DNA of 32,000 bases, taken from NCBI RefSeq assembly GCF_018398935.1, contig NZ_CP074694.1, positions 1,470,001 to 1,502,000 of the forward strand, written 5' to 3'. Of this stretch, positions 1-31,668 are shown in pieces. The DNA comes from Telmatocola sphagniphila. GTDB lineage: Bacteria > Planctomycetota > Planctomycetia > Gemmatales > Gemmataceae. How positions within the stretch are numbered: position 1 is the first letter of the stretch; the number at the start of each line of letters is the position of its first letter. Made by a program: the position numbers and the translations under genes. The notes below the pieces were generated by a model that worked only from the letters and a program-made list of their open reading frames with translations, made no database searches and was not told the DNA's origin.

Positions 1-94
1 GGAATGATACGTGGAGCGGATTACGGCGACTGATTCTATTAGCGACTAAACTTCAAGGTACGCACAGCCAAGAATCGTGCGAAAGGTGAGAATT

Positions 95-5518: not shown

Positions 5519-5539
5519 CGGAAGACTCCGGTTTTTGCC

Positions 5540-8650: not shown

Positions 8651-8874
8651 GAAAAAACCTCGATGAACAGTCCAAGGTAAGAAAAGCGATCGCAGGTTGT
8701 CGGAGAAAACCATCGTGGCGGCGGGAGAACTACTCGAATTAAAAAGCCAATGACTGAGGTTCGAATAGCTCTATCAGCAGTCTGACATGCTGCATGCCAC
8801 TGCAATCGATTTTAGCCGAAAGAAGCTTACCCTGTAGCGTGAAAATGGCAATAGTGGACGATTTTTGGTGATCG

Positions 8875-11047: not shown

Positions 11048-11943
11048 ATTCTATTCGGATAGTATCTGTCGGCGAAGTGTTGTGGGATCTCTTTCCCGGT
11101 GATGAATGCCTGGGCGGAGCCCCGGCGAACTTTGCAGTGCACTCCGCCCGGAATGGGGCGGCCGTGGTTTTTGTCAGTGCGGTGGGAGAGGATAGTCGTG
11201 GTACTCAAGCGAGAGAAATTTTATCCTCTTACTCAGTGGACATTTCATTCATTCAAATAAAAAGCGAATTTCCCACGGGGACTGTAGGAGTGCAGTTGGA
11301 TGCCCAGGGGAAACCCCATTTTCAGATTCACGAGAATTCTGCCTGGGATCATCTCGAGTGGTCCAATCAATTCGAAACTCTGATTGCAACGGCCGATGCA
11401 ATATACTTCGGAACTCTGGGACAGCGCGCAAGTCAATCAAAGAAAACTATTCGCAGAATGCTGGAACTCGCTCGCGTACGTGGCCTTAGGCGAATTCTGG
11501 ATATCAACCTTAGAGCCCCATTTTATACCAACGAAATGCTGCGGGACTCGCTCGAGTTAGCAACCGTTTTGAAGCTGAGCGATGAGGAATTGCCCAAATT
11601 GCTTTCGGCTCTTGGGTTCGAGTCCACCGCAGAACCTTCTGAAAGCCTTCGTTGGATCCGTGATAAATACGCTCTGGATTTGGTAGCCATGACGCGGGGA
11701 GCTGCGGGAGCGTTGCTCATTACCGAGAACGATTTAGTCGATCAACCGGGGGTCAAGGTCGTTGTGCAGGATACCGTGGGGGCCGGCGACGCATTTGCCG
11801 CGGCACTCACAGTCCATTATCTTCTCAAGAAATCCTTAACTGAGATTGCCCGCATCAGTTCCGATGTGGCCGCACAAACCTGCACATATAGCGGGGCTTT
11901 GCCGCCGCCGCTTTTAAATTCTTCGAGAATTCAACGAAATTGA
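11044..11943 (+). CDS. PfkB family carbohydrate kinase (fructokinase-like)
   Basis: 299 aa. The ATG overlaps the transporter stop (ATGA at 11044..11047) and GAGGA lies upstream. Motifs are VGEVLWDLFP...LGGAPANFA and DTVGAGDAFAAAL (the PfkB anion-hole/ATP motif). Confidence 0.85.
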   Translation: MNSIRIVSVGEVLWDLFPGDECLGGAPANFAVHSARNGAAVVFVSAVGEDSRGTQAREILSSYSVDISFIQIKSEFPTGTVGVQLDAQGKPHFQIHENSAWDHLEWSNQFETLIATADAIYFGTLGQRASQSKKTIRRMLELARVRGLRRILDINLRAPFYTNEMLRDSLELATVLKLSDEELPKLLSALGFESTAEPSESLRWIRDKYALDLVAMTRGAAGALLITENDLVDQPGVKVVVQDTVGAGDAFAAALTVHYLLKKSLTEIARISSDVAAQTCTYSGALPPPLLNSSRIQRN

Positions 11944-11954
11944 GTGTAACGATC

Positions 11955-15361: not shown

Positions 15362-16342
15362 TTACTTGGCTTTCGGCCAGATCAAATAGCCAGGGGTTTT
15401 GGTTCGGATGCTATACAGTGTTCCGCCTCCGGTGATGTAGAGCGTTTTGTGATCTTCCGAGCCAAATGCACAATTTGTGACTTCATCCTTGGGTACCGAA
15501 AGAAATTCCAGGAATTTACCCTGCTTATCGAAGACGTAGATTCCTCCTTTGACATTTGTGTCTGGTTCGAAAGGAGGATTGGGTTTATTCAATCCTCCAG
15601 CCACGTACAGTCGGCCCTCTTTATCCTGTTTTAATCCATCCGGCCCGCGCCCCTTTTTCCAATCGAAGATCAGTTTCCGACTACCCAGTTTGACCGAACC
15701 ATCCGATTTCAAATCGAAGCGGTAGAGTTTCCTAGCTCCATTCAAGGCATTATTGTCGTTGTCCGCGACATAGAGATATTTGTCGTCTGGAGTGATCAGG
15801 ATGCCATTGGGTCGTTCCAACTCCCGACCAAGAATTCGGGTCACTTTTCCATTCAAATCGATCCGGTAAACTCCTTCGACGATTTTCTTGTCGGCATCGA
15901 ACATCTCGAGTTTCGATCGATCCCCATAGCAAGGATCAGTGAAATAAATTCGCCCTTTGGAATCGAGAGTGATGTCATTGGGTTCGTTGTATCGGTGCGA
16001 TTCATAGGAATCGGTCAGCACCTTGATCGTGCCATCCCGCTCCGTGCGAGTGATTCGTCTTTGTTTTGGTTCGCAGGAAAGCAATCTCCCCTCCCGATCA
16101 AAGACCAACCCGTTAGCTCCGGCATCTTTTCGATAAACCGAAACTTTCCCGGTCGAGTCCATCCTGTTAATGGCCCCGTCATGACCGGTCATGAAAACCC
16201 CCAGGGCCGGATGCCATGCTGGTCCTTCGCCGCCGCCTTCGCATTCCACTTTGAGCTGGGAGTCTTTCTCAAAGACGAGGGATTGACAAAAGCCCTTCGG
16301 AGCAAAAACAGTGAGTAGAAAGCCAATGGTCCAATATCGCAT
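15362..16342 (-). CDS. SMP-30/gluconolactonase/LRE family protein (secreted beta-propeller)
   Basis: 326 aa with the signal MRYWTIGFLLTVFAPKGFCQS. Repeated propeller blocks are NEPNDITLDSKGRIYFTDP, ERPNGILITPDDKYLYVADN, GPDGLKQDKEGRLYVAG and ...TNCAFGSEDHKTLYIT. Confidence 0.85.
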   Translation of the reverse strand: MRYWTIGFLLTVFAPKGFCQSLVFEKDSQLKVECEGGGEGPAWHPALGVFMTGHDGAINRMDSTGKVSVYRKDAGANGLVFDREGRLLSCEPKQRRITRTERDGTIKVLTDSYESHRYNEPNDITLDSKGRIYFTDPCYGDRSKLEMFDADKKIVEGVYRIDLNGKVTRILGRELERPNGILITPDDKYLYVADNDNNALNGARKLYRFDLKSDGSVKLGSRKLIFDWKKGRGPDGLKQDKEGRLYVAGGLNKPNPPFEPDTNVKGGIYVFDKQGKFLEFLSVPKDEVTNCAFGSEDHKTLYITGGGTLYSIRTKTPGYLIWPKAK

Positions 16343-16394: not shown

Positions 16395-19300
16395 TTACTT
16401 TAAAGTCATCAGATAGGCAATTAAATCGCGAATTTCCCGCGGCGTTAGTCTCCCATCCATGGCCGGCATGGAAGAAGTCGGTTTGGTCCGCTCTTCTATC
16501 TCAGCAATGGGTACAGTCACTGACTTCCCATCGGGAGTTTTCAGCGTGATTTTCGAATTATCTTCTGCCGTGATGGTGCCCGCAATTACTCGACCGTCGA
16601 AAAGAGCGAGAGTCACATTCGCGTAACCCAAAGCAATTTTTGCGTTGGGTAGCATGAGGGACTCCAGGAGATACTCTCTCGTTTTCTGCGGATTGCGAGT
16701 GACCACTTGGGTCAAATCTGGTCCTGCCGTACCTCCACTACCTTTCACCGAATGGCAGCGCACGCATTGAGCGACCGTATGTCCATAGAAAATATCTCGG
16801 CCTGACAGTGGATTTCCGCCGTACAATGCGGATTGGTATTTCCCAAGAATATCCTTCGGTTCGGAAGCCTCGAATTGAAGCAGATGCAATCTTCGAGTAA
16901 TGGAAGAAGCTGATTTGAGTACATCTTTCACATCCAGAATCAATTCTGGGGCAACCTTACCTTCGGATAACCTTTTAGCCCAGAGATCCAGCAATTCATT
17001 GGCTTTCGGATTCTTGAGAGACGTGAGCGAATGCAGGGCCTGCTGCCGTTCGTAAATGCTAGCCTGGGTATCCTCCAGCACGCGAGCCAGTTCTTCAGTG
17101 CCTTTTTTAGCGTCGATTCGAGCATAAGTTTCTCGGGCCTCAGCCCGCAATGTGTCCTCCGGATCGTGCAGGACGGGTTCGAGTTTCGAATCGAGTAATT
17201 TTGAATTACGTTCTCCGAGTAGGTGAAGAGCGGCCCGGCGCGTGGAAGTTTCTTTTTTGGGATCGAGGACCCATTCCAGAAGTAGAGGTTCCCGGATGGG
17301 TATATCCAGTGTACCGATTAAGTTTAAGGCCTCGGTTAGGAGCATCCCTTGAGCTTGAGTGAGAATTTTCTCGACGGAGGGACTGACCACCCGACGTACA
17401 ATCTCGCGATCCCGCTTGGCCAGCGTTCTCCAGAATCCGATGACTCGATCTCTTTGGGGAGGTTCCGCCCAGTCCCTCAAGGCCGCTATTGCTTCGAGCC
17501 GTACGGCACTGGAGAAACGATTGTCCAGAGCAATATTTAATATTTTCCCCGCATTCGCCTCTTTGCCCAGCCAGAAGTTGGCATCAATGATCCTTCGCAT
17601 AAGCGGATCGAGTTCGAGTGGGTTAGAGATGGGTCCAGAGAGTTGGGTATCTGCCAAAACTGGATAAAGCTCGGTCATCGGTAGATCGTGGATGGCTCGG
17701 GCCGCTTCCGTTCGAATCAATAAATCGCTATCCTGTAAAAACAGCGAAATCTCCTGATCCTGTAATCGTCTCTGAACCAGCAATACTCCCATTCTGACTC
17801 GCGTGGAGGCATCTTTGGCGTAGGCTTTCAACTCCTGTGCGACTCCCATTTGAGATAAAGCATAAACTGCGGCATGACGTAAGAAGGGATCGTCTGTTGC
17901 GTTCTCACGCAGCAGCTCTATAAGTGGCTTAACTCCTTCCTTAGACTTGTGCTTTCCGAGTGCTTGAGCCGCGAACATTCGCACTCGGAGGGAGTCATCT
18001 TTCAAAAGAGGAATAATTTGGGAATCGATACTGAGAAACTGAGATTCCCCGAGGACTTTTGCCGTCTGCGCCCGAACTTCCGCATCAGGATCTGATAAAT
18101 AAGCCGTCAAAGGCTTCAAAATCTCCGGGTTTTTTCTAGCCAGTTGTCCCATTCCCCAAAGAGAATGTAGTCGGCTGTAGCGATTCGAATTTTTGCTATC
18201 TGCAAGCATTAACTGAAAGATCTTGGCTCCCTCATCGCCTCTTTTTGCGAGTTCGAATTGTGCCCGAATCCTTAACTTCATTTCGGGGTGGAATAACAGT
18301 TCTTGCAAACTGGAAAGCGTTTGTTTATCGAAGCCTTCAGCAAAGACTTTTTTCATCCGCTGCACATCCGGCGATTGTATTTTTGCCTCATCAAAGATTG
18401 TGAAGATGCGGCCACCCGTACTTCGGCCACTCCAATCCAATGCGCCGAAATCGGAAACGTAAAGTTTCCCCTCTGGCCCCAGGTCGACATCGGTGGGATA
18501 AAAAGGTTTCAGAAAGTCGTGATAATCTGCGATTTCATACCCTGCCCCGGATTGTTTCAGGTGAAAGGATTCCAGACCTCCATTGCCTGTGTAGTTGCAC
18601 ATCAAAAAACTGTTTTGGTATCGAACGGGCAGACTGCTACCACTGGTGAAAAGAAAACCGGAAGGCCCCGTCCCGACTTTCCCAATGGGTGGCAGCAACC
18701 AGGCCGGTTGTCCCGAGTGTGGAGTGTGCCACATTCGCTCCGCAAACCAGGGCCCGGCCAGGTAAGGTGCCTTCATCGTCTGGTAAGCCATATTCCAGCC
18801 GGCATCGCCGCCTTCCAGAACATAAACCAGTCGAGCATCGTCCCCGTAGTCGCAGTTGTTATCGTCTGCAAACAGATTTCCGAATTGATCGAAGGCTAGT
18901 TCCTGAGGGTTTCGTAAGCCGCGCATCACGACTTCGAAATTCGAACCATCCGGATCGCATCGGAAAACGGCTCCATTCCTCAAACCAGTAAAGTTCTTGC
19001 CTTCCTGCGATGTGACGTTGAAACCGCGATCTCCAATACTGAAATACAATTTCCCATCCGGTCCGAAGATCAGACCATGCAAATCATGACCGAGAAAAGC
19101 GCAGCTGACTCCAAAACCGGTGAGTAGAGGTTTCCGAATATCAGCCGTGCCCGTTTTTTTGGTATCCTGGAGCAGCCAGAGGTTGGGAATATTGGTCAGG
19201 TAGACTTTTCCCTCGTGAGCGAGAACTCCCGCTGCCAGGCCATCCAGTGGATCGTTGAACCCGCCCGCGAACACCGTGGAGTGATTCGCCCGGCCCGATC

Positions 19301-19718
19301 CGCTGGTATCTTCCAATAGTCGAACCTGATCGGCATGCTTGCTGAACCAGGACATTCCCCCGTCGAATTTCGACTGCCATTTTTTGAACATCGCCAGGCG
19401 GTCGCTCACCGATTTGAGCTGTAAGTCATCTTCCAGGAAAAAGGGGCGGGTTCGATTTTCCTCCGTCCCTCGGCTGAAGCGATACTCCTCGGCCACAAAA
19501 ATTCGACCTTTTTCGTCGACACTTATGGCAACCGGACTTCCCAGCAACGGTTCCGCTGCGAATAACTCAACTTTGAGGCCCTTGGGATAACGGAAGCCGG
19601 CGATTTGTTTCAGGGCTTTTTCCGTGCCATCGGGTAAGGTGGGTTCTTCCAGAGGGGGTTCCGCCATGCAAACGGCTGGCACGAAAAATGCGATTATAAA
19701 AATGTGGATTCGAAGCAT
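16395..19718 (-). CDS. PVC-type heme-binding CxxCH protein (dehydrogenase-like beta-propeller + HEAT repeats + C-terminal cytochrome c)
   Basis: 1107 aa with the signal MLRIHIFIIAFFVPAVCMA. The N-terminal roughly 450 aa resemble soluble glucose/sorbosone-dehydrogenase-type propellers (GRIFVAE, HDLHGLIFGPDGKLYFSIGDRG, NPQELAFDQFGNLF). The middle is HEAT-like (DPDAEVRAQTAKVLG, DDSLRVRMFAAQALG, ASTRVRMG...). CVRCH lies at 16752..16766. Confidence 0.85.
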   Translation of the reverse strand: MLRIHIFIIAFFVPAVCMAEPPLEEPTLPDGTEKALKQIAGFRYPKGLKVELFAAEPLLGSPVAISVDEKGRIFVAEEYRFSRGTEENRTRPFFLEDDLQLKSVSDRLAMFKKWQSKFDGGMSWFSKHADQVRLLEDTSGSGRANHSTVFAGGFNDPLDGLAAGVLAHEGKVYLTNIPNLWLLQDTKKTGTADIRKPLLTGFGVSCAFLGHDLHGLIFGPDGKLYFSIGDRGFNVTSQEGKNFTGLRNGAVFRCDPDGSNFEVVMRGLRNPQELAFDQFGNLFADDNNCDYGDDARLVYVLEGGDAGWNMAYQTMKAPYLAGPWFAERMWHTPHSGQPAWLLPPIGKVGTGPSGFLFTSGSSLPVRYQNSFLMCNYTGNGGLESFHLKQSGAGYEIADYHDFLKPFYPTDVDLGPEGKLYVSDFGALDWSGRSTGGRIFTIFDEAKIQSPDVQRMKKVFAEGFDKQTLSSLQELLFHPEMKLRIRAQFELAKRGDEGAKIFQLMLADSKNSNRYSRLHSLWGMGQLARKNPEILKPLTAYLSDPDAEVRAQTAKVLGESQFLSIDSQIIPLLKDDSLRVRMFAAQALGKHKSKEGVKPLIELLRENATDDPFLRHAAVYALSQMGVAQELKAYAKDASTRVRMGVLLVQRRLQDQEISLFLQDSDLLIRTEAARAIHDLPMTELYPVLADTQLSGPISNPLELDPLMRRIIDANFWLGKEANAGKILNIALDNRFSSAVRLEAIAALRDWAEPPQRDRVIGFWRTLAKRDREIVRRVVSPSVEKILTQAQGMLLTEALNLIGTLDIPIREPLLLEWVLDPKKETSTRRAALHLLGERNSKLLDSKLEPVLHDPEDTLRAEARETYARIDAKKGTEELARVLEDTQASIYERQQALHSLTSLKNPKANELLDLWAKRLSEGKVAPELILDVKDVLKSASSITRRLHLLQFEASEPKDILGKYQSALYGGNPLSGRDIFYGHTVAQCVRCHSVKGSGGTAGPDLTQVVTRNPQKTREYLLESLMLPNAKIALGYANVTLALFDGRVIAGTITAEDNSKITLKTPDGKSVTVPIAEIEERTKPTSSMPAMDGRLTPREIRDLIAYLMTLK

Positions 19719-20588: not shown

Positions 20589-23500
20589 TCAAAATCGAAG
20601 GATGGCTGATTTCCGGCCCAACTGCAATATCAGGGCATCGGGATCGACAATCACCTGAGTAGGCTTGAACTTACAGGTGATCGAAATTTCCCGGCTTTCC
20701 CCCGCTCCCAGAACGACAGCTAGCCGGGCATCCCGATAATCAGGCAGTTGCCTCCCTTCTTTATCAAACCGATCGCCCGTAGTGGCCGCGACATCAATTT
20801 TCGCTGTTGCCGTCCCGGCATTGGTGATCTTGAGTTTCACAACCCATTCCTCGGGAGAGTTCGAGGACACCTCCCGGAGGCCGTCGCTCAATCGATATTC
20901 GGGAACAACCACTTCATAGAACCACTGTTTGGTGAACGCATCATAAGCCGGTTTGTCAGTTGCAAACTTCCGCATGAATTCAACAAAATTCTGGAGCAAA
21001 GGATAGTCCGGCCCATCGTGGTATTGTTCGATGAATTGTCGAATCCCCTGAAGCATTGCTTCTCGCCCCAGCTGTTGCAGCATCATCCAGAATACCCAAC
21101 CGCCTTTGTCGTAAATCACCGTGGTGTCACCATCCTGGCTACCATCGATTTTCACTAAGGGCCGTTCTGAATCGCGACGGCGTTTCTGCTCGTATTGCGA
21201 TTCGATTTGCTTGAGAAACTGGATCCGACCGCGTGGACCTTTCATTTGTTCGAAGAGTAATGCCGTCGAAAAATGTGCCATGCCTTCAGAAAGCAAATCG
21301 GCATTTGTTCCTTTTCCTGGGGTGAGTATGTTTCCCCACCACTGATGAGCTGCCTCGTGGGCCGTCACCATAAAGGTTGCGTTCGATTCATTGTCATTCT
21401 GAGTGAGAAAACCGATTGCTTCCGAAAACGTGATATTTGTCGGAAAGCCCTGAGCGTAGCTCGCATAGGCCGGGAATTCACTAAGCTTCAGCTCCTTCCA
21501 GGGATAGGGATAAAACCATTCCGAATAGTACTTCCGGCTGGCATCCAGCGTTTCCGAGATTTCCTGGATGTTGAATGTATGGCCGGGATAATAATAGACT
21601 TTTGTGCCCTGCCCTTCCTTGACTTCCCACTTGCCGCCGACAACATTGCAAAAGCGGACGGGATGATCGCTTCGCCATTCCACAGTTTTTTTGCCATCTT
21701 GAACCGATTCGCTGACTCGAACTCCAACGGCATTCATAGTAAAGCTTTCCGGGGCTGTTATCACAAAGCGAGTGGAATAGCCGTGGTTCGAGCCAAAAGC
21801 CGGCCCCTTACGCTGTTTATAGTAATCGTCGGGATATTCTTTCTGTTCGTGCTTGTTATCTTTATCGACACCTATTTCGGACGCATAACCCAGTACGGGT
21901 AGAAAACTCGGTGTGAAACTGGTCAATACGATTCCAGCGGGGCTAATGAACTCGGAAATTCCACCGCCATTTTTGCTGATGCCCTTCGGCAGATGACCGG
22001 TATAGGAAAATCCGATGCGAACCACTTTCCCCGATGTCAGTTCTGCTTCGGGTGTAAAGACGCAGAGTAAGGAACGATCTTCGGGCTGATACGCCTTCCC
22101 ATTCATCGTCCAACTTAAATCCTGCCAATGCGGACCGACGGTCAGAGGGATTAGTCGAATCGGTTTTTCGCCATCGTTTCGAATTTCGTAGGATCCGGTG
22201 ACGCGGAATGCGGCCTCGTTCGGTTCAATCTCCAACTGCACGTCCATAGAATTCAAATTAGGAAGGACCGCATCGGTCCAGGTGGCGTGATTTTTGCGCC
22301 AATAATCCTTAAGAGCTTTCTTGACAACATCTCCCTCGTAGCCATCGTACACGCTTCCGTAGAGCATGACGCCCAAGATCAGTGCCGGAAGTGCGTAAGG
22401 TAGTAATCGCAGCCCCGTTCCGAAAACTGCCGCCGGGTAAAAACGCGTTAAAAGCCGACCGGGATCGGGTTCTCGCCTGCGGAAGAATTTCACAGCGACC
22501 ACGACAAAGAAAAGGGTCAAAGACAGAATGAAAAAGCGATTGAGCAAGATCGCGCGTCGATCCATTTCCAGAATACCGAGATCGCTCCAGTGAATTGAAC
22601 TCCAGAGCATCCAATTGCCCAACCAGTTCATTTCTTTAGTGAGAGCCCGATATATCGTGAAAATCATCACTGCCAGCCCAATCCCAAGCGTGGTGTACCG
22701 ATTTCCGGTTACCGAGAACGTGGCCGTGATGAATGTGGTCCAGAGTAGGAAAGTAGGAATCAGTAGTAGTCCCCAGATGATGAGGAACGGCCCTGTTTGA
22801 ATGGGTACTATTCCCTGAATTGCCAGCAGGGTCAGACAAGTCAGCAGGTTAGCCAACAGAATGAAAACGCCTACCGCGCTGTTTGCCAGAGCTTTGCCAA
22901 ACAGTAGAGCGGAGGTTCGAACCGGAGCCGCAAAAAGGATGGAAGAAGTTCCTGTTGTAGGATCCCGTTGAAGCGATTCCACGGTGTAAAACATCAATAG
23001 TAAACAGACCATAAGCGTAAGCGGGTTCATCGCGGCGACCGCTAACGTGCCTGCCGTGGAAAGCAAGGGAGTATCGAAAGCGCCGACAGCGAGGCTGCTT
23101 GAAGTTACGGTCTGTAAAATGATAATTGGGATGAACAGATACAAGCCCGGTTGGCTTCGCAGCTCTCTCAATTCCACTTTGGTCACGTGCCACAAACTCT
23201 GGAAAAAGCCAGGTTGTGAGGTCGTCATTTGCAGTGAGCCGAGATTGGCCGAGTCTGTTGCTTCCAAACGCTCATACTTTTCAGGAGTGTTGGAATTTGA
23301 TGTAAACCGGAACTTCGATTTTCGAGTTTTCGATGCCCCACGCATGCTGGAGACCAGAGTAATTTGTGCGGCGAAAACGCAAAGTAATCCGAAGCAGGCC
23401 AGGACGATTCGACTGAGTGAGAACGCAAGAGAATACTCCACTCGTGCGTGGTTGTAAAAATTCACTCCTTTATCGCTTTTCAACCAGGTTTCAGACAGCC

Positions 23501-24188
23501 ATCTAAACCCGGAAGGGTCGACCAGCATTAAAAGCTTGTTGATTCTGGGATCCAACCAACTCGGCGACCAGCTCCAGAGAAAGAAGCCGCATGCAAGCAG
23601 TAAAGCGACAGGAATTACGTAAAGCAAAATCGGTCGACGACTCCAGGTTCCGATGCAGAACGAGATTCCCGTGAGGAATATTAAGGTCGGAAACGCGAAG
23701 AAAAAGGCCGGCCGAAGATAATTCAAAGCATCGAAAGGGCCGCGAATCTCTAGCGATCGCGAATTAGGAACGAAATGGTTGAAAAAAATCATGCTCAGAA
23801 GGTGCAGGACCAAAACACCCAGGAAGCTCATAATTATCGCAAAATATTTTCCCCAGATGTATTCCGCCGGACGCAGGGGCGTCGAATGCAAAAGTTCACT
23901 GATCTTCATCTCATCATCGGCGATCACGGGCATCCCCGAGGCGATGGCCGCAAAAAAGATATAGAAAATGAACACGATCATTCCCAGCATTTGGGTGATA
24001 GCAAATTCGGAAGTGATCCAGGCTTTTGTGCCGCCGACATGGCTATCGCCGCTTGATATCTGAAGGGTTCCGGTCGAAAGCCCCCAGGCGGAGAGGAAAA
24101 GTACGATTACTAGAATCCAGTAGAGTGGCCGACGAATGTTGTGTAATAGATCGATCTTCGCGATCTGCATAGTGCGTGCGAGATTCAT
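20589..24188 (-). CDS. ABC-2-type transporter permease (two tandem modules) fused to an M1 family zinc metallopeptidase domain
   Basis: 1199 aa with an ATG start. I count about 13 hydrophobic helices in aa 20-620, including two ABC-2-like loops (ELLHSTPLRPAEYIWGKY; SILFAAPVRTSALLFGKA). The C-terminal part is gluzincin: HEAAHQWWGN (21345..21359), LLSEGMAHF (Glu968) and VIYDKGGWVFWMM. Confidence 0.85.
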   Translation of the reverse strand: MNLARTMQIAKIDLLHNIRRPLYWILVIVLFLSAWGLSTGTLQISSGDSHVGGTKAWITSEFAITQMLGMIVFIFYIFFAAIASGMPVIADDEMKISELLHSTPLRPAEYIWGKYFAIIMSFLGVLVLHLLSMIFFNHFVPNSRSLEIRGPFDALNYLRPAFFFAFPTLIFLTGISFCIGTWSRRPILLYVIPVALLLACGFFLWSWSPSWLDPRINKLLMLVDPSGFRWLSETWLKSDKGVNFYNHARVEYSLAFSLSRIVLACFGLLCVFAAQITLVSSMRGASKTRKSKFRFTSNSNTPEKYERLEATDSANLGSLQMTTSQPGFFQSLWHVTKVELRELRSQPGLYLFIPIIILQTVTSSSLAVGAFDTPLLSTAGTLAVAAMNPLTLMVCLLLMFYTVESLQRDPTTGTSSILFAAPVRTSALLFGKALANSAVGVFILLANLLTCLTLLAIQGIVPIQTGPFLIIWGLLLIPTFLLWTTFITATFSVTGNRYTTLGIGLAVMIFTIYRALTKEMNWLGNWMLWSSIHWSDLGILEMDRRAILLNRFFILSLTLFFVVVAVKFFRRREPDPGRLLTRFYPAAVFGTGLRLLPYALPALILGVMLYGSVYDGYEGDVVKKALKDYWRKNHATWTDAVLPNLNSMDVQLEIEPNEAAFRVTGSYEIRNDGEKPIRLIPLTVGPHWQDLSWTMNGKAYQPEDRSLLCVFTPEAELTSGKVVRIGFSYTGHLPKGISKNGGGISEFISPAGIVLTSFTPSFLPVLGYASEIGVDKDNKHEQKEYPDDYYKQRKGPAFGSNHGYSTRFVITAPESFTMNAVGVRVSESVQDGKKTVEWRSDHPVRFCNVVGGKWEVKEGQGTKVYYYPGHTFNIQEISETLDASRKYYSEWFYPYPWKELKLSEFPAYASYAQGFPTNITFSEAIGFLTQNDNESNATFMVTAHEAAHQWWGNILTPGKGTNADLLSEGMAHFSTALLFEQMKGPRGRIQFLKQIESQYEQKRRRDSERPLVKIDGSQDGDTTVIYDKGGWVFWMMLQQLGREAMLQGIRQFIEQYHDGPDYPLLQNFVEFMRKFATDKPAYDAFTKQWFYEVVVPEYRLSDGLREVSSNSPEEWVVKLKITNAGTATAKIDVAATTGDRFDKEGRQLPDYRDARLAVVLGAGESREISITCKFKPTQVIVDPDALILQLGRKSAILRF

Positions 24189-24252
24189 TTCCTGCTTTCT
24201 AAATCATCGGGAATAAAGCGTTGAGGTTGACGAGCTGCGAGCTTTTAATCCA

Positions 24253-25143
24253 TTACTGCTGAGTGATCCCCGGCAATTCGGAGCGTAAAGTGACGAAGTA
24301 AGCGTCCTGCAAAGTCGGCGGTACGCCGATAAATCCAATGGGTGGAGTTCCCCCTTTTTGGTAAATCCTCACTCGGTTCGTTCCCTCGACCAGAATGGCT
24401 TGCGTAACCATTTGCGATTTTCGGATGGATTCCAATTCGGCCGTGGAAACGGAAGCTTCGTAGATGTTTCCCTCGAGATGTTTGCGGACTTCCGAAGGTG
24501 AAGTCTGGGCGACGATTCGACCCCGGTTGATCATGGCGAATCGAGAACAGAGCACGGCCACATCCTCGACGATATGGGTCGAGAGTAAAACAATTCGCTT
24601 CTCGGCAAGTTCGGCGAGCAGGTAGTAGAATCGAACCCGCTCTTCCGGGTCCAATCCCGCCGTCGGTTCATCGACGATGATCAAACGAGGATCCCCGGCA
24701 ATCGCCTGGGCTAATCCCAACCGTTGACGCATACCGCCGGAGTAGGTTTTGACTTTTCGCTGGGATGCGAAGCTGAGATTTACTTTGTCCAGGAGTTCTC
24801 GTGCCAGAGCCATAGTACCCTTCGGCGACTCCACGCCTTTGAGCCGGAGAAGATGGGCCAGCATTTTTTCGCCGGTCAAATGTGGATAAAGTCCAAAATC
24901 CTGGGGCAGATAGCCGAGTCGACTCCGCAAAAACTGCGGCGTCTTGATGACATCCGTGCCATCGAGAAGAACTTCCCCGGAAGTTGGCTCCAACAAACCG
25001 GCAACGACGCGCATGAAAGTCGTTTTTCCCGCTCCATTGGGGCCTAAAAGACCAAACATGCCATTTTGCAGATCGAGATTGATCCCTTGCAGTGCCGCTA
25101 CGGGGCCGGGATAAACCTTAACCAGATTTCGAATCGACAGCAT
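24253..25143 (-). CDS. ABC transporter ATP-binding protein
   Basis: 296 aa. It has Walker A GPNGAGKTT, Q-loop LGYLPQD, signature YSGGMRQRL, Walker B LIIVDEPTAGLD and H-loop LLSTHIVED. It lies 64 nt upstream of the permease/M1 gene on the same strand. Confidence 0.93.
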   Translation of the reverse strand: MLSIRNLVKVYPGPVAALQGINLDLQNGMFGLLGPNGAGKTTFMRVVAGLLEPTSGEVLLDGTDVIKTPQFLRSRLGYLPQDFGLYPHLTGEKMLAHLLRLKGVESPKGTMALARELLDKVNLSFASQRKVKTYSGGMRQRLGLAQAIAGDPRLIIVDEPTAGLDPEERVRFYYLLAELAEKRIVLLSTHIVEDVAVLCSRFAMINRGRIVAQTSPSEVRKHLEGNIYEASVSTAELESIRKSQMVTQAILVEGTNRVRIYQKGGTPPIGFIGVPPTLQDAYFVTLRSELPGITQQ

Positions 25144-25581
25144 ACGCGTCTCGGAGTGTTTAGGTGATGCAATGTTCCAAACTAGTACCCGACTATGTCC
25201 CGAAAGGTTTCATTTACAGCGAAGCAGAATTTCAGGACAATTTGGATGAGGGTTTTTCGTCAGTCAACGAGATGGATTTAGATCTCATAGCAAATATTTG
25301 GGAAATCTGCCAGAGCGGTCCGTAATTGGTCAAGACCATATCTGCGAAACATTTTTGAGGCGGGACAAAGTTCGATAAGAATAGTCCGTGACGTGCTTTT
25401 GAGAGGTCTGTTCCACTTCTCCCGCCGGACTCAGTCGAAGCTGGATTGTTGTTTGGGTTTTGGGAGGGCTTTAGATGTTCAGGGACAATAGCTTTGAAAA
25501 TTACGACCGAATGGTGGATGGCTTCCGCTCTACTCGGAATGACAATCCCTGGGACTACCAAGGATTGTCGCACGCTGGAAA

Positions 25582-26964
25582 TTAAAGCAGTTCCGAAATT
25601 GGTGTAGGCTCATCCAAAATGTTTGTCGGTCGTCCGGTTGGATCGATCAACTGCAGCTTGGGATCAATCCCCAGAACTTCGTAAATCGTCGAGTGAATAT
25701 GCGATGGTTTCACAGGGCGATCCTTTGGTTTTTCCCCCAATCGATCCGTAGAACCGATGATCTGGCCCCCCTTCACTCCACCGCCCCCCAGCAGACAAAA
25801 CATCGCATCTCCCCAGTGATCCCGGCCTGGGGTACCCTTGGACATCGGGGCGCCGCCATTGCCGCCATCGTTCATTCGCGGCGTGCGGCTAAATTCACCG
25901 CACAGCACCACCAGTGTGGAATCGAGCAAGCCGCGTTCCGAAAGATCGGTGAAGAGTCCCGCCACCGCGCTGTCCACGATGGGAAGTAATGTCTCGTAAC
26001 CTTTTTTCAAATCCCAGTGATGATCCCAACCGCCCAGATGGACGGTAACAAATGTTGTACCTGCCTCCACTAATCGTCTGGCGAGTAAAACACTCTGCCC
26101 CCAAGAGTGACGGCCGTACAGATCGCGAGTCGAAGCTTTCTCTTCAGCGATATCAAAGGCTTTGCGGGCGGTCGCACCGCAAACGAAATGAAATGCCTCT
26201 TCTGTGAATTTGTCCTTGGCAATGAAATCTCGCCGGTTTTCGAATTGCCGCTGCACACTATCGAAGTGCTGGAGCAACGTTTTGCGATTCTCGAGCCGAT
26301 CCATGGTCAAACCATTAGCCAGGTTCAAGTTCGGCACTTTGAAATTGGCTTGATTGGCATCCGCAACGGTTTCGAAAGGATTGTACTGAGCCCCCAGGAG
26401 ATGCCCGCCGAAGTAACCGGGCCGTAAGCCTACACTCATTCCGTAAGGGACACCCACATAACCTGGCATTCCTGGTTTGCGAGGTCCAGCTTCGCGATTG
26501 ACGATAGCACCAATGCCGGGAAATTTTTGCTCGTTATTTGCCCCACTGACACCCATGTCCTTCGCCGTCAGCATGCGGTGAGCTCCGGCAAAGTGATCGC
26601 CTGTATTATGATGGAGAGAACGGACAATGGAAAACTTGTCCGTGACTTTAGCTTGTTTGGGGTAGAGTTCGGTGATGTCGAACCCAGGGACTTTCGTTTT
26701 TATTGGTTTCCAGATTCCGCGATACTCAGCCGGAGCATCCGGTTTCATATCGTACATGTCCATATGGCCAGGACCGCCGTCGAGCCAGATGAGAATGCAG
26801 CGAGTATCGGGTTGGCTCAATTTGTTTTTTTGAGATTGGTCGCTGGCTTTCAAAAGAGCTGGAAGAGTTAGGGAAGCCATACCGGCTATGCCCAGCTGCA
26901 AAAAAGATCTTCGGCTTTGACCATCGCAATAACGATCCGAACGTCCAATGTCCAGTTGAAACAT
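25582..26964 (-). CDS. DUF1501 domain-containing protein (second copy, Tat signal)
   Basis: The track ORF extends to 27018 (a TTG). The ATG at 26964 has AAGGA upstream and gives MFQLDIGRSDRYCDGQSRRSFLQLGIAGMASLTLPALLKA. Family blocks are present: ILIWLDGGPGHMDMYDMKP, LGGWDHHWD, LCGEFSRTP, GRDHWGDAMFCLLGGGGVKGG. Confidence 0.88.
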   Translation of the reverse strand: MFQLDIGRSDRYCDGQSRRSFLQLGIAGMASLTLPALLKASDQSQKNKLSQPDTRCILIWLDGGPGHMDMYDMKPDAPAEYRGIWKPIKTKVPGFDITELYPKQAKVTDKFSIVRSLHHNTGDHFAGAHRMLTAKDMGVSGANNEQKFPGIGAIVNREAGPRKPGMPGYVGVPYGMSVGLRPGYFGGHLLGAQYNPFETVADANQANFKVPNLNLANGLTMDRLENRKTLLQHFDSVQRQFENRRDFIAKDKFTEEAFHFVCGATARKAFDIAEEKASTRDLYGRHSWGQSVLLARRLVEAGTTFVTVHLGGWDHHWDLKKGYETLLPIVDSAVAGLFTDLSERGLLDSTLVVLCGEFSRTPRMNDGGNGGAPMSKGTPGRDHWGDAMFCLLGGGGVKGGQIIGSTDRLGEKPKDRPVKPSHIHSTIYEVLGIDPKLQLIDPTGRPTNILDEPTPISELL

Positions 26965-27741
26965 GAGAGAGGTCCTTGAGAAGGAACTGGCAGATTCTTG
27001 AGGAGCAAGTTTGCTCAAACACGGCGGGTATCAACAATGTGTAGCATAATCCGACCGGACCTGGTCTGCAATCGGAAATCCTGGCTTTTCAGTTAGGTGG
27101 GCGGTTCGCGTAGCTCTAGTAGTTTTCCTCAAGGAGGGGGGAGCTCTGCGATCGAGTTGAAATTGTCAGTTTCAATCCGGTGACTTCAGCAAAGGCATTG
27201 GTGCTTCGCGCAAGTTACTGGCTGTATCCTGTTCAATTTCCGAACAGAAATCTTTTGAAATGACTTCGCCTGAGGACGGAGAGAGAAAAGGGTTTGGTAC
27301 TTTATTTGCACAAGCTAGATCGGCGAAGAAAATAATCTGACGGCTCTACCGCAGATTGCCTAACGGGAAAAGCTTGCTCCTTCGAGAACGTGAAAAAGTC
27401 ATTGATTTTGTGCGGAATATGGCTTTTTTGATACGTTGAAAAACATTCTCTTGACACTAACCACTCGCAATCGGTATTTCAAATCTCGCGAGACCGGATG
27501 AAATCTGCTCTGCAATTCTCAATCAGATGAACTCTTCAAAAGTGTTTGGCAGGTAACGATTCCATTCCATCTATCTTTCGGAAAAGATCAAAAGCCGGGT
27601 CGTGTCGATTCGAACTGCGCGAGTGGTTCGCGATGCGAAACAAAAAGCTGGTTTGCTTCAGATCGTGTGGGGGGCTTTCCGATCTGATTCGGCGACTGGT
27701 TTTTGATAGGGTGTCATTGTCAAAGTGTGTGGGGGAAAATT

Positions 27742-30700
27742 ATGCTGCGCAAACTTTTTACAGCACTTCGTGCACACAAAAAAAGCAAACCATACGTTGT
27801 TCGAAAATACAACACTCGCTTACGTTTGGAAGAATGTGAGTCCCGGGAGGTGCCAGCCGTCGGTGGGGGCTTTGCCGGAGGTGGAATAGTCGGCAACTAT
27901 TATGCCAATAATCAATTTGCAGGAACTCCTTCCTTTCAGCGCACCGATGTACGTCTCGACTTCAATTGGGGTAATCAATCTCCCGGAGGTTCGCTGTCGC
28001 CGAATTATGCTGCGGTGGGGGCCAACAATTCGCCCTACTCTGTTGTTTGGAATGGCACTCTGCTTCCCGCATTCAACGAGACTTATAACTTCTATGTCAA
28101 CACCGACATCAACGACTCGTTTCAAATATTCATTCGCGCAGTGAATCCTTCGCAATTGCCGAGCGATTATGCGAACTGGACGCCGGCTTCGTCCGATGCG
28201 GTGTCATTCAAACAAACGGCGGTTCGAGGTACCGAAACTACGTGGCAGGGGTCGTACGGTCCTTTCGTGGCAGATGGCAGCAAGCAGTACCAGATTCAGA
28301 TTCGCTTCAAGGAATCACCCGGAAATGCAGAATTCCATTTGCAATGGTCGAGTCCTTCAACACCGGCCGAGGTCATAGAAACGGCAAATGGTATTGGAGT
28401 AAATGTTGCGCAGCCGCACTACTACGATCAGAATTACTATTTTGCAGATGCGATGAAGAGCTCCCGCTGGTGGTGGGCACCCGCCAACAATCCTTATCTG
28501 AATTTGGATACCTCCAATGGTCCTTCAACTTATCCCGTTCAGACTGACTCAAATGGTTGGCCGATGACCGATGCCGCTATCGGAATCTTCGATGCCCTCA
28601 GCAATGCGGACGGCGTTTACGACATCACATTTCAAGGAAAAGCACAGGTTCAGATTTCGGGTTATTACTATGTGGGGGTGGATTCGGTTCAGCTACAGAT
28701 TCCCACTGCATCCGGTTGGACCAACCTGGCCTACGGCAACGTGAAAACTGCCGGACAGGGTTACGACCCAACAACCAACACTACTCATTTCCGAATCGTG
28801 CTGTCGCCGAAACTCGATTCGATCCAAACCAATTTGGGCCTGATTTTTACCAGTTCTCAAAGAACGGCCGCATCCCCGACGAACACGGGAATCACCAATC
28901 TGAGCGTGATGCGACCGCAAGATAACAATCCCACTACGCCGTATTCGAGTGGAACGATCTTTACTTCAGATTATGAAAGCTCACTCTCGCGATATTCCGT
29001 TTTGCGAATGATGGAAGGGACTAATGGCAACCAGTCAACCAGTTGGGATACGCGAACTCAGCCCACGGCGTTCAATCAGTTCGGGACCGTCAATCTCAGT
29101 TATCAGCCCTTTGGCAACGGCGATCCCGCGGAACGTAGCGAAGGTCGGGGGATGTCTTGGGAATATCGAATCATGCTGGCGAATGAAACCGGCAAGGATC
29201 TCTATATATCCATTCCAGAAAACGTGGACGATACCTATATTCGCAATCTCGCCAAATTGATCCAATATGGGAGCATCGCGCAGACGATCAACGGGGTCAC
29301 TACTTACCGACCCGCAAATCCGGGGGAGAAACCTGATTTCCCTCCCTTAAATTCGAATCTGCACGTTTATATCGAGTACTCGAATGAAGTTTGGAACAAT
29401 GCCCCGCCTTACAGCCAGAGCCAGGAAAATCTGATTAATGCTAAGTCTGCGGTGGCGGCCTATCAGGCAAACCCGAACTCGACTTCCTTGCAAGCTCAGG
29501 TCGGCCAGGGCTTAAACTACGACAACGTGAATGATCCCTACGTCTGGGCTCGCCGCTATCAGGCGTATCGGACAGCCATCATGTCGCAGATATTTCGCAG
29601 CGTGGTCGGCGATTCCGGAATGGGAACGCGAGTGCGCGCCGTTTACATGGCGCAGTATGCCAACGAAAACAATACTTCCCAGGATGCATTGTTTTTCCTG
29701 CAAAATCTAAATCTCGCCATGCCCACGATCTTTGGTAGCTCGGCTAAACCGGTGAGTTATTATCTCTGGGGCATGGGCGCCGCCACGTATTTCCAGGCTA
29801 GCAATCAATTCGGTCTGACAAAACTGGTGGCTGATAGTGATTTTTCCAGCCCGAACGTCCCCACTAATTCCACGCAATGGAATCCCTCCGCACCCGGATG
29901 GAGTTTCATCGGACGTGCCGGAATCCAGGACCAGGCAGGCGCTCAAAGTGCGATTCTGTTGGGGAACGGCAAAAATACTGCTGTCAACTCAGGTACTAAC
30001 CCGGCTGGCAGACTCCGCCTGACATTCACGATTCCCGCCAATCAGTCCTCCAATGTGTATGCGGTAACGTTCTCGGCAGCGAAAGTTCCCGGATCGGCTG
30101 CCAATGGCTTGGAAGTCTATCTTGATGCGAACAACCTGGCCTCGATCTCGGATAATTCCTCCCAGCGACTTACCAATAATGGTTTCTCTAATGGCTTGGC
30201 CAGCAGCATACAGCTAAGCGATAGTCTGACGACCTATTACAGTCTGACTTTCACCGGGGCGCCCGGGTCAACGCATACGATCGATTTCGTCGGGACCGCA
30301 GCCAACGGTCAGGCCCTAATCGATAATGTGCAGTTGCAAAGTGTCGATGCTCTTTTGACGGGAGCATCGCAGTCTCCTACCCCCTATCCCGATAATAACC
30401 CGGACTACGGGCAATCCTTCGCGGATTATCAGAGCCGTACGAATGCTGAATCGGATTGGGCGCGACTGTATGGTTTAAAGTTTGTCGGCTATGAAGGGGG
30501 CTGGGCTCTCGGCTCGGATCTGGGCGGCAAGTATGGTACCTACCCCCTGCTGGACTACGTGAAATTTAACATTACCAGCGCTGACCCGCAGTACAACAAC
30601 GTCCGGTTGATGCAAGCCAAGGCGATCGATACATTTGCTAAAGCCGGCGGCACGCTGGAAATTTTCGGAACTTACACTCAGTGGCGCGGCAGCAACAACG

Positions 30701-31668
30701 CCATACCAGGGCAATCCACACAGCCATTGCCAAGTGCCTACGATATTGCCAATAACCACTTACCTCCCGCCGCAAGTGGCAATCCCGATGCGAGTACGAC
30801 GATTTATGGTCCAAACAGCACCCTGAATTTGAGTAACGCGAATCTGACTTCCGCTGTGTATTACGGCAACTCCAATAACTCGACCTCCCAGCTGAACTCT
30901 CAACGCTCGAACCCGTATAACTTGTCGAGTAATTTTACCAGTCAGGACTGGGTGAACTGGAACGTCTTCGTGCCGACATCCGGTTTCTACAGGATCACGA
31001 GTTCGACTTCGGATCTGAATTCGGGTCAAGCTTCAATTTTCGTGGATGATCAAGCGATGACTTTCGACGGTGGCATAGGACAGGTGGCCGCAGCCGGTTC
31101 CGCGGCTACCGGAGTCGTGGCGTTAACCAAGGGCTTGCATACTATTCGCATTCAGGCGGTTTCCGGCCAATTCAATTTCAACAGTATCCAGGTGAGTAGT
31201 GTATTGAGTGCCTTCACGGGCAATCAACCTCGCTATTTAAGCGATATGACGCCGATAACCGCTTATAACAGTTGGGGACCGTACGAACGAGATATGAGTA
31301 ATGGAGAAGCGGCCGCGAACGATGGCCAGATGATTAGCATTGCGGGTCAAACTTTTGCCAAGGGGTTGGGTGTGCATTCGGGGAGTTCCTTGACCTACGC
31401 GATTCCTGCGGACGTCACCCGTTTTCAGGCGAATATCGGAGTCGACGATGAAGTAGGCAATAAAGGCTCAGTCGTATTTCAGGTCTATCTCGATGGAAAT
31501 TCAAATCCGGCTTACACTTCTTCGGTATTGCGCGGCTCCCAAGGTTCGGTTCCTATCAACATCAATGTCACCGGAGCACATACGCTGCGACTGGTAGTTA
31601 CAGATGCTGGGGATGGTCCAGATTACGATCATGCCGATTGGGCTAATGCTCGCTTTACCTCCAACTGA
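27742..31668 (+). CDS. Large multi-domain carbohydrate-active surface protein (PA14 + clan GH-A-like core with inserted beta-sandwich + CBM6/35-like + NPCBM)
   Basis: I prefer the ATG at 27742 (GGGGGA 6 nt upstream; 27703 is TTG). PA14 is seen as GNYYANNQFAGTPSFQRTDVRLDFNWG...YSVVWNGTLLPAFNETYNFYVNTDINDSFQIFI...EFHLQWSSP. IEYSNEVWN and FVGYEGGW are candidate catalytic Glu motifs. The C-terminal NPCBM (31234..31665) reads YLSDMTP...WGPYERDMSNGE...GQTFAKGLGVHS...ANIGVDDEVG..GSVVFQVYLDG...LRLVVTDAGDGPDYDHADWANARF. Confidence 0.85.
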   Translation: MLRKLFTALRAHKKSKPYVVRKYNTRLRLEECESREVPAVGGGFAGGGIVGNYYANNQFAGTPSFQRTDVRLDFNWGNQSPGGSLSPNYAAVGANNSPYSVVWNGTLLPAFNETYNFYVNTDINDSFQIFIRAVNPSQLPSDYANWTPASSDAVSFKQTAVRGTETTWQGSYGPFVADGSKQYQIQIRFKESPGNAEFHLQWSSPSTPAEVIETANGIGVNVAQPHYYDQNYYFADAMKSSRWWWAPANNPYLNLDTSNGPSTYPVQTDSNGWPMTDAAIGIFDALSNADGVYDITFQGKAQVQISGYYYVGVDSVQLQIPTASGWTNLAYGNVKTAGQGYDPTTNTTHFRIVLSPKLDSIQTNLGLIFTSSQRTAASPTNTGITNLSVMRPQDNNPTTPYSSGTIFTSDYESSLSRYSVLRMMEGTNGNQSTSWDTRTQPTAFNQFGTVNLSYQPFGNGDPAERSEGRGMSWEYRIMLANETGKDLYISIPENVDDTYIRNLAKLIQYGSIAQTINGVTTYRPANPGEKPDFPPLNSNLHVYIEYSNEVWNNAPPYSQSQENLINAKSAVAAYQANPNSTSLQAQVGQGLNYDNVNDPYVWARRYQAYRTAIMSQIFRSVVGDSGMGTRVRAVYMAQYANENNTSQDALFFLQNLNLAMPTIFGSSAKPVSYYLWGMGAATYFQASNQFGLTKLVADSDFSSPNVPTNSTQWNPSAPGWSFIGRAGIQDQAGAQSAILLGNGKNTAVNSGTNPAGRLRLTFTIPANQSSNVYAVTFSAAKVPGSAANGLEVYLDANNLASISDNSSQRLTNNGFSNGLASSIQLSDSLTTYYSLTFTGAPGSTHTIDFVGTAANGQALIDNVQLQSVDALLTGASQSPTPYPDNNPDYGQSFADYQSRTNAESDWARLYGLKFVGYEGGWALGSDLGGKYGTYPLLDYVKFNITSADPQYNNVRLMQAKAIDTFAKAGGTLEIFGTYTQWRGSNNAIPGQSTQPLPSAYDIANNHLPPAASGNPDASTTIYGPNSTLNLSNANLTSAVYYGNSNNSTSQLNSQRSNPYNLSSNFTSQDWVNWNVFVPTSGFYRITSSTSDLNSGQASIFVDDQAMTFDGGIGQVAAAGSAATGVVALTKGLHTIRIQAVSGQFNFNSIQVSSVLSAFTGNQPRYLSDMTPITAYNSWGPYERDMSNGEAAANDGQMISIAGQTFAKGLGVHSGSSLTYAIPADVTRFQANIGVDDEVGNKGSVVFQVYLDGNSNPAYTSSVLRGSQGSVPININVTGAHTLRLVVTDAGDGPDYDHADWANARFTSN

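Follow-up and report, generated by a model that had tools for sequence, protein, structure and literature searches.

Organisation of the gene pair and fold of the permease

The 32,000-nucleotide stretch of the Telmatocola sphagniphila genome analyzed here (contig NZ_CP074694.1, positions 1,470,001 to 1,502,000, hereafter the window) contains two adjacent genes on the minus strand, which encode an ATP-binding cassette (ABC) ATPase and a large fusion protein. The ATPase gene (24253-25143, 296 amino acids) lies 64 nucleotides upstream of the fusion gene (20589-24188, 1199 amino acids plus stop), and an AGGA sequence is found in front of the ATG of the latter. As assessed from the list of open reading frames (ORFs), Pfam, homologues and AlphaFold2 modelling, the fusion gene encodes a double type V permease, an additional transmembrane helix (TM13) and an M1-like peptidase. 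An original prediction, made by reading the sequence alone, had described a canonical ABC ATPase 64 nucleotides upstream of a 1199-residue ORF on the same strand, and the ORF coordinates, the Pfam match and the motif set all agree with this description. Features of both genes are given below in window coordinates and are all on the minus strand.

The ATPase was assigned to the ABC-2 (DrrA/GldA) class using the ORF list, Pfam, NCBIfam, its motifs and a survey of related loci. Pfam ABC_tran (PF00005) matched with E = 1e-30 and 107.5 bits for a cut-off of 25, and the top NCBIfam classes, drrA (3e-58) and GldA (5e-50), are both of the ABC-2 class. The full ABC motif set is present, with the Walker A motif (GPNGAGKT, residues 34-41), the Q-loop (79-82, with Q81), the signature (YSGGM, 134-138), the Walker B motif (IIVDEP, 155-160, catalytic Glu included) and the H-loop (STH, 188-190, with H190). 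Judged by these motifs, the ATPase is catalytically competent, and it is predicted to act as a dimer. Upstream of its gene lies an intergenic region of about 440 nucleotides (25144-25581), containing only a 113-codon GTG ORF without family match. An Rfam search of this region gave no match, and no convincing minus-strand promoter for the operon was detected in it, the sole consensus-like site (25213-25241) being on the plus strand.

The first half of the fusion protein had been read as two tandem six-helix ABC-2 permease modules, and both Pfam and fold matches agree with this reading. ABC2_membrane_2 matched the fusion in two stretches (32.7 bits, cut-off 27.2), as expected for a type V permease; ABC2_membrane_3, _4 and _5 also matched, each under its own cut-off. 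Hydropathy analysis revealed 13 hydrophobic segments, which are conserved as hydrophobic in 110 homologues. An AlphaFold2 model of the whole fusion, built from a 110-sequence alignment, displayed 6 + 6 + 1 helices of membrane length (predicted local distance difference test, pLDDT, 89.2; predicted template modelling score, pTM, 0.85). Module 1 (residues 1-285; 23334-24188), covered by ABC2_membrane_3 and _5, starts with an amphipathic connecting helix (3-19) followed by TM1 to TM6 (21-282), and external helices are located at 214-247. Module 2 (residues 328-575; 22464-23207), covered by ABC2_membrane_2 and _4, is composed of a connecting helix (328-344) and TM7 to TM12 (347-568). The basic linker between the two (residues 286-327; 23208-23333) is predicted to be disordered and cytoplasmic, with pLDDT below 50 at 285-315 and the lowest conservation.

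The two modules share 20% identity, and their alignment stays in register from the N-terminal helix up to and including the TM2-TM3 loop. Indeed, the two family loops quoted in the original prediction correspond to the TM2-TM3 and TM8-TM9 loops, which occupy equivalent positions in the two modules. The TM2-TM3 loop (residues 91-111, DDEMKISELLHSTPLRPAEYI; 23856-23918), with a short helix at 96-101, is the most conserved segment of the permease. Its D91 is at least 95% conserved. From the model, the module alignment and this conservation, the loop is predicted to be coupling helix 1, in contact with the ATPase. The equivalent TM8-TM9 loop (residues 403-429; 22902-22982), with a helix at 415-420, is predicted from the model and the module alignment to be coupling helix 2. 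Altogether, the model displays the hallmarks of a type V fold: an amphipathic N-terminal helix, six transmembrane helices per module, a TM2-TM3 coupling helix and TM5-TM6 external helices.

A separate AlphaFold2 model of residues 1-640 (pLDDT 83.7) was compared with the PDB using Foldseek. Rv1217c-Rv1218c aligned over 610 columns with a TM-score (TMt) of 0.59, NosY and PmtCD were both matched with TMt 0.65, and further matches were obtained with ABCG, KpsM and ABCA proteins. All of these are type V ABC systems, matched with probability 1.00 and a TMt of about 0.6. The E-values were weak (2e-3 to 1e-1); therefore, the model-based assignment of the permease to the type V (ABC-2) fold rests on the TM-scores and on the consistency of the match list.

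In each module, an Asp in a periplasmic loop is accompanied by an Arg located some five residues inside TM6 or TM12 (D224/R260 and D536/R551). D224, R260, R551 and also W522 are at least 95% conserved in 81 divergent relatives. The two pairs and W522 may act as pseudo-symmetric salt bridges or make up a binding site at the boundary of the outer leaflet.

The two modules are followed by TM13 (residues 585-615; 22344-22436), which is predicted to return the chain across the membrane. A 13th hydrophobic helix had been noticed by eye, and it proved to be real: it is one of the hydrophobic segments, it forms an unbroken 31-residue helix in the model, and its mean Kyte-Doolittle hydropathy in the family (1.55) is comparable to that of the other transmembrane helices. 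Just after it, a conserved helix (residues 620-637; 22278-22331), in which W630 and N633 are invariant, is a candidate mechanical link between the membrane domain and the peptidase.

The M1-like peptidase and its sidedness

The C-terminal half had been described as an M1 N-terminal β-domain, a thermolysin-like catalytic domain and an Ig-like tail. The first two assignments hold, and the tail turned out to be the domain III β-sandwich of M1 enzymes. In the model, domain I (residues 641-870; 21579-22268) contains strands between 644 and 866, the catalytic domain II (residues 871-1092; 20913-21578) extends over 874-1090, and domain III (residues 1093-1199; 20592-20912) over 1098-1198. The latter carries a conserved C-terminal tail (P1176, D1182, P1183 and R1192), with which the protein ends. 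When the whole model was submitted to Foldseek, IRAP, ERAP1, ERAP2 and PepN were retrieved from the PDB with E-values of about 1e-20 and about 600 of some 860 target residues aligned. Domain II also matched ERAP1 and ERAP2 by sequence among PDB entries, and Pfam Peptidase_M1 (PF01433) matched residues 888-1059 with E = 2e-15 and 57.2 bits (cut-off 27.7). Among the Pfam families whose search had been suggested, Peptidase_M1 and ABC2_membrane_2 thus scored above their cut-offs; ERAP1_C gave no match.

The catalytic centre proposed at the outset (HEAAH, Glu968 and the YDKG Tyr) is present in full, Pfam and alignments being in agreement. HEAAH (residues 944-948; 21345-21359) would provide two zinc ligands and the catalytic Glu. 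E968 (21285-21287), which aligns opposite the NEG Glu of ERAP1, would be the third ligand. Its assignment stands, with a spacer of 19 residues rather than the canonical 18, and HMMER sets a one-residue gap at this position. H944, E945, H948 and E968 are each conserved in 81/81 divergent full-length relatives. Y1026, in YDKG (21111-21113), is found opposite the ERAP1 YDKG Tyr, the residue stabilizing the transition state in M1 enzymes, and is kept in 66 of the 81 relatives. Moreover, conservation within the fusion protein is highest in the catalytic domain. Since its zinc-site residues are invariant and it is the best conserved domain, the M1-like peptidase is very likely an active enzyme.

Two absences, both bearing on the substrates that can be cleaved, had been overlooked in the original prediction: that of the GXMEN Glu and that of the domain IV lid. 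In PepN, ERAP1 and LTA4H, the GXMEN Glu anchors the free N-terminus of the substrate. At the corresponding position the fusion contains YAQGF (residues 911-915; 21444-21458), in which the Glu is replaced by G914. Two independent alignments, from phmmer and from a profile, gave the same register, and the position is variable, with no Glu in the 81 relatives. Domain IV of these enzymes encloses the substrate and controls the switch between open and closed states, as well as the catalytic Tyr in ERAP1 and IRAP. Here, no ERAP1_C match was found by Pfam and the chain ends after the domain III β-sandwich, so that the ERAP1/PepN architecture is incomplete. The database name "aminopeptidase" is therefore unproven, and the domain is filed as an M1-like gluzincin, with the M1 fold and catalytic centre, and not as an aminopeptidase. 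As both the N-terminus-anchoring Glu and the lid are missing, cleavage of internal bonds or of N-blocked substrates is more likely than classical aminopeptidase action.

The N and C termini of type V permeases are both cytoplasmic. With a real TM13, the peptidase should therefore be located outside the cytoplasm, on the face opposite the ATPase, as the odd number of helices had suggested. On this and the following, indirect evidence, a periplasmic location is highly probable. Family-wide counts of Lys and Arg (26 in "in" loops vs 17 in "out" loops) fit a topology with the N-terminus inside; the basic segments are the N-terminus (4.5), the inter-module loop 282-347 (about 8.7) and the TM12-13 loop (5.2). 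Comparison of the two models, built on alignments of slightly different depth, revealed that the presence of the peptidase increased pLDDT by 11-19 points, a gain limited to the periplasmic loops 141-150, 361-380 and 521-550 and to residues 611-640. In the latter block, pLDDT decreased from 92-94 with the peptidase to 73-83 without it. In cytoplasmic segments the shift was -4 to +5 points, and it did not exceed 4 in the two coupling loops.

Distribution and gene neighbourhood of the fusion

A full-length search over 5.8 billion proteins retrieved 1,287 homologues of the fusion (clusters at 90% identity), the closest being 65% identical. The best 120 of these 1,287 are almost all about 1,200 residues long, with 51-65% identity over the full length. 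With the peptidase part alone (residues 575-1199) as query against 1.84 billion representatives, 374 clusters (50% identity) were obtained at E <= 1e-30. Among its best 150 relatives, with identities down to 27%, the complete entries are nearly all fusions of 1,130-1,270 residues, and most of the shorter entries begin in the middle of the permease, as gene fragments do. The M1-like clade is therefore essentially confined to the permease fusion.

Homologues were found in Planctomycetota, Acidobacteriota (Thermoanaerobaculia, Holophagales), Myxococcota, Gemmatimonadota, Eisenbacteria, Bacteroidota and Sumerlaeota. All named source phyla, at least seven, are diderm, except for one "Candidatus Paceibacteria" bin (L068) that is possibly mis-binned. 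The fusion is also carried by cultured bacteria such as Myxococcus fulvus, Corallococcus exiguus, Pyxidicoccus, Stigmatella and Vitiosangium. In a neighbour-joining tree, grouping is only partly by phylum, and the proteins of Myxococcus share about 55% identity with their planctomycete and acidobacterial counterparts; this may point to some horizontal spread of the fusion. The architecture is thus widespread and has already been catalogued by annotation pipelines: the NCBI protein name is "ABC transporter permease/M1 family aminopeptidase", and at the Joint Genome Institute (JGI) the NosY cluster of orthologous groups is assigned to many family members. In line with the original prediction, no experimentally characterized member was found in the open-access and preprint literature searched.

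The neighbourhood and phyletic survey that had been proposed was carried out on 71 genome loci, 64 of which contain an equivalent fusion gene. In 49 of the 64, an ATPase gene lies immediately upstream on the same strand, with a product 59-73% identical to the ATPase of the window. Gene calls gave a 4-nucleotide ATPase/fusion overlap at 31 of the 49 linked loci. Several of 13 apparent large overlaps result from an over-extended fusion start in GC-rich DNA, the ATPase ending 4 nucleotides into the fusion. No other neighbour family was conserved across the surveyed loci; therefore, the ATPase and the fusion form a self-contained two-gene module.

Eight full-length fusions, 37-43% identical to that of the window, are found without an ABC ATPase within 8 kb on either strand. 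These are L040, L042, L062, L065 and L066, from a Holophagales/Acidobacteriota clade, together with L046, L047 and L067. Seven of them belong to two clades of the gene tree, and L067 is outside the tree sample. They may borrow an ATPase encoded elsewhere.

A few entries depart from the common organization. A planctomycete metagenome-assembled genome (JADJLZ01) that also carries a full-length copy (L063) contains a paralogue matching residues 620-1199 only (L057, 7407-9863). The frame upstream of it is Arg-rich, non-coding-looking and devoid of permease, and this gene represents a truncated copy or, alternatively, a soluble module that stands alone. In a single case, a 1506-residue protein from a JGI metagenome (P0096) joins ATPase, double permease and M1 domain in one frame, with ABC_tran at 18-162. 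It is possibly a true triple fusion, or the product of a one-nucleotide error at the usual ATGA overlap. In a 643-residue entry (P0215), a Met and a basic stretch are followed by one hydrophobic helix aligned with TM13 and by the full peptidase. This may be a signal-anchored stand-alone form and, as such, would favor an extracytoplasmic location. Finally, at a single Holophagales locus (L066, 11739-13550), a DUF885 protein comes after the fusion, and two large TPR/STAND-like proteins come before it.

The remainder of the window contains genes of other kinds. On the plus strand, a major facilitator superfamily (MFS) sugar transporter is split into two ORFs (9677-10504 and 10580-11047) that cover positions 2-282 and 311-451 of the Sugar_tr profile, probably owing to a frameshift, a pseudogene or a sequencing error. 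With a PfkB sugar kinase (11044-11943) and a GH32 glycoside hydrolase (11940-14117), which overlap their predecessors by 4 nucleotides, it makes up a likely fructan or sucrose utilization operon (9677-14117). Families typical of planctomycetes are represented by a DUF1501 protein adjoining a PSCyt1/PSCyt2/PSD1 protein (4073-8713, minus strand), by a second, lone DUF1501 protein just upstream of the ABC operon (25582-27018, minus strand) and by a DUF1552 (HXXSHH) protein (77-1399, plus strand). A 1107-residue PVC-type haem-binding CxxCH protein, with DUF7133, HEAT repeats and a C-terminal cytochrome c domain (16395-19718, minus strand), adjoins an SMP-30/gluconolactonase-like β-propeller protein (15362-16342, minus strand). 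Finally, in a 1321-residue protein (27703-31668, plus strand), the sole recognized domain is a C-terminal NPCBM/NEW2 carbohydrate-binding module, its first 1,170 or so residues giving no match in Pfam or NCBIfam.

Possible mechanisms and comparison with known systems

Altogether, these analyses describe what is very probably a two-gene ABC system, in which two ATPases bind the coupling loops of one fusion protein and TM13 leads to a competent M1-like peptidase (domains I-III) docked on the periplasmic side. Gene order, motifs, fold, conservation and the fusion itself are shown. From the gene linkage and the Rv1217c precedent, we infer an ATPase2:fusion1 stoichiometry; sidedness, substrate class and ATP coupling are likewise inferences.

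The best explanation of this architecture, which we put forward tentatively, is an ATP-driven "extract and cleave" machine. A hydrophobic or amphipathic peptide, drawn from the membrane or the cytoplasm, would enter the cavity of the permease, as in Rv1217c-1218c and PmtCD. ATP binding would then lead to collapse of the cavity and opening of the periplasmic gate, and the substrate would pass directly to the tethered peptidase, to be cut in its open groove. The physiological role could be the destruction of membrane-active or toxic peptides, or the clearance of signal-peptide-like remnants. A self-contained, patchily distributed module fits such a detoxification or membrane-hygiene role.

Several observations weigh against this explanation. 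Lys and Arg counts immediately flanking TM13 are not decisive for its orientation (5.2 before vs 6.1 after), the Foldseek E-values of the permease are weak, and Y1026 is conserved in only 66/81 relatives. The surveyed neighbourhoods contain no conserved substrate gene, regulator or partner hinting at the cargo, eight fusions have no ATPase nearby, and the literature searched contains no characterized member. Moreover, type V systems like NosDFY perform mechanical work in which no substrate crosses the membrane.

The strongest alternative, which we consider rather unlikely, is an ATP-gated periplasmic protease that works by mechanotransmission, with nothing crossing the membrane. Movements of the permease, TM13 and the 620-637 helix would open and close the peptidase, or substitute for its domain IV lid, and so switch the cleavage of periplasmic or membrane-surface substrates, in a manner similar to NosDFY or FtsEX. 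With a TMt of 0.65, NosY ranks among the closest structural matches, and the type V ABC module of NosDFY is said, in work of Mueller and colleagues from 2022, to drive a periplasmic partner. The M1 module lacks precisely domain IV, the lid that governs the open/closed state in ERAP1 and IRAP. The conserved helix after TM13 and the apparent stabilization of the module 2 periplasmic loops by the peptidase in the model would also suit such gating. However, the nearest full-length match of the permease is a true efflux pump, Rv1217c-1218c, and neither a conserved periplasmic partner nor a substrate gene was found near the loci. The two mechanisms are compatible in part, as gating and delivery could both occur.

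It is less probable still that the permease only anchors or positions the peptidase, transporter and peptidase being uncoupled and performing separate jobs. The eight loci without a nearby ATPase are consistent with such a tether, as are the few database entries that resemble a peptidase with a TM13-like anchor alone (P0215) and the truncated peptidase-only copy (L057). However, one helix would suffice for this purpose, yet across phyla, down to 27% identity, the 12-helix permease, the linkage to the ATPase and the coupling loops, in which D91 is at least 95% conserved, have all been kept; in addition, most short entries are gene fragments beginning within the permease.

Processing of envelope precursors appears quite improbable. 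In this scheme the permease would flip or export a lipid-linked or N-blocked intermediate, whose peptide part would be trimmed by the M1-like domain. Type V systems do move lipid-linked polymers, examples being KpsMT (among the matches here), Wzm-Wzt and TarGH, and an enzyme that has lost the Glu for binding free N-termini would suit N-blocked substrates. Against this, no conserved envelope-biosynthesis genes were found near the surveyed loci, and the apparently patchy distribution, with a gene tree only partly following phyla, is unlike that of a core envelope pathway.

More improbable again is digestion coupled to import, in which the peptidase would free amino acids or short peptides at the transporter mouth for uptake. 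The fusion would indeed place the products at the transporter, and the hosts are protein-degrading soil and water bacteria, but the fold is that of a type V exporter or extractor, bacterial ABC importers use type I-III folds, and no gene for a substrate-binding protein is linked. Finally, an assembly or frameshift error merging two genes, for which no supporting point was found, is refuted by the uninterrupted 1199-codon ORF, by the more than 1,280 same-length homologues (1,287 clusters) from independent assemblies, which include isolate genomes of Myxococcus, Corallococcus, Pyxidicoccus and Stigmatella, and by the equivalents at 64/71 loci.

The periplasm contains no ATP, and energy-dependent proteolysis there is an open problem. 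In this family, ATP consumption in the cytoplasm may be coupled to the cleavage of peptides on the other side of the membrane. In the boldest reading, which we regard as rather unlikely, it would be the first ATP-dependent extracytoplasmic protease: the energy of cytoplasmic ATP would be transmitted through the type V domain, in place of the M1 lid, and peptides or protein segments would be pulled from the inner membrane to the periplasmic zinc site. A protease wired to an ABC motor would be a compact answer to the ATP-free periplasm. If membrane-active peptides are extracted and destroyed, the family would represent a novel kind of peptide-resistance or membrane-hygiene device, and thousands of "aminopeptidase" or "NosY-like permease" annotations would have to be corrected. 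The architecture, which is solid and widespread, offers a direct way to test for ATP-powered proteolysis outside the cytoplasm. The family is large, needs two genes only, spans many phyla and occurs in cultured myxobacteria that could be studied genetically.

Among known systems, Rv1217c-Rv1218c of Mycobacterium tuberculosis (PDB 8K1M-8K1P) is the top structural match over the whole permease half. It shares the type V fold, the single-chain double permease and the separately encoded ATPase. Rv1217c is one chain with two permease domains, bound by two copies of the Rv1218c ATPase; its cavity lies in the outer leaflet, and binding of ATP opens its periplasmic gate (PMC11406275). A non-canonical Y-S-x-G signature is also common to both, as YSKGN in the Rv1218c system (PMC11406275) and YSGGM here. 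Unlike the fusion, Rv1217c ends after TM12, with neither a 13th helix nor a peptidase, it belongs to a mycobacterial drug efflux pump, and identity is only 11-12%. PmtCD, the phenol-soluble modulin exporter of Staphylococcus aureus (PDB 6XJH, 9Q2N), shares the ABC-2 fold and shows that such a fold can handle amphipathic, membrane-active peptides, which are the substrate class proposed here. It differs by its homodimeric permease, the absence of a peptidase and its monoderm host.

NosFY of the NosDFY(L) copper-delivery machine (PDB 7O0Y, 7ZNQ, 7QBA) resembles the present system in its six-helix ABC-2 fold and in having an ABC module that serves a periplasmic protein on the outer face. However, NosY is a homodimer of separate chains, and its partner NosD is a separate β-helix protein, not a peptidase. 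None of NosD, NosL and NosZ is encoded in the window, and the likeness is one of fold only. In FtsEX and other type VII mechanotransmission systems, cytoplasmic ATP hydrolysis likewise controls an extracytoplasmic hydrolase. FtsEX and MacB have a four-helix fold with a periplasmic domain between TM1 and TM2, and the hydrolase is separate, recruited and acts on peptidoglycan; here, the modules have six helices with short TM1-TM2 loops, and FtsX gave no Pfam match.

The peptidase is closest to the M1 aminopeptidases ERAP1, ERAP2, IRAP and E. coli PepN, with which domains I-III superpose and the HEXXH...E site and the YDKG Tyr align. It differs from them by the change of the GXMEN Glu to G914, the lack of domain IV, the spacer of 19, the N-terminal membrane anchor and the low identity (13-16%). 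Functional precedents for an ABC exporter coupled to cleavage of the exported peptide are provided by the peptidase-containing ABC transporters (PCATs, C39) and by NisT/NisP. The fusion differs from both, PCATs having a type IV fold and an N-terminal cytoplasmic cysteine peptidase, and NisP being a separate protein. Its own fold is type V and its peptidase a C-terminal metallopeptidase, and C39 gave no Pfam match. The biosynthetic clusters that contain PCATs and NisT/NisP also include a gene for the precursor, which is lacking here. By analogy, the system is most like a hybrid of Rv1217c-1218c or PmtCD, for export or extraction, and of NosDFY or FtsEX, for an ABC motor serving a periplasmic effector.

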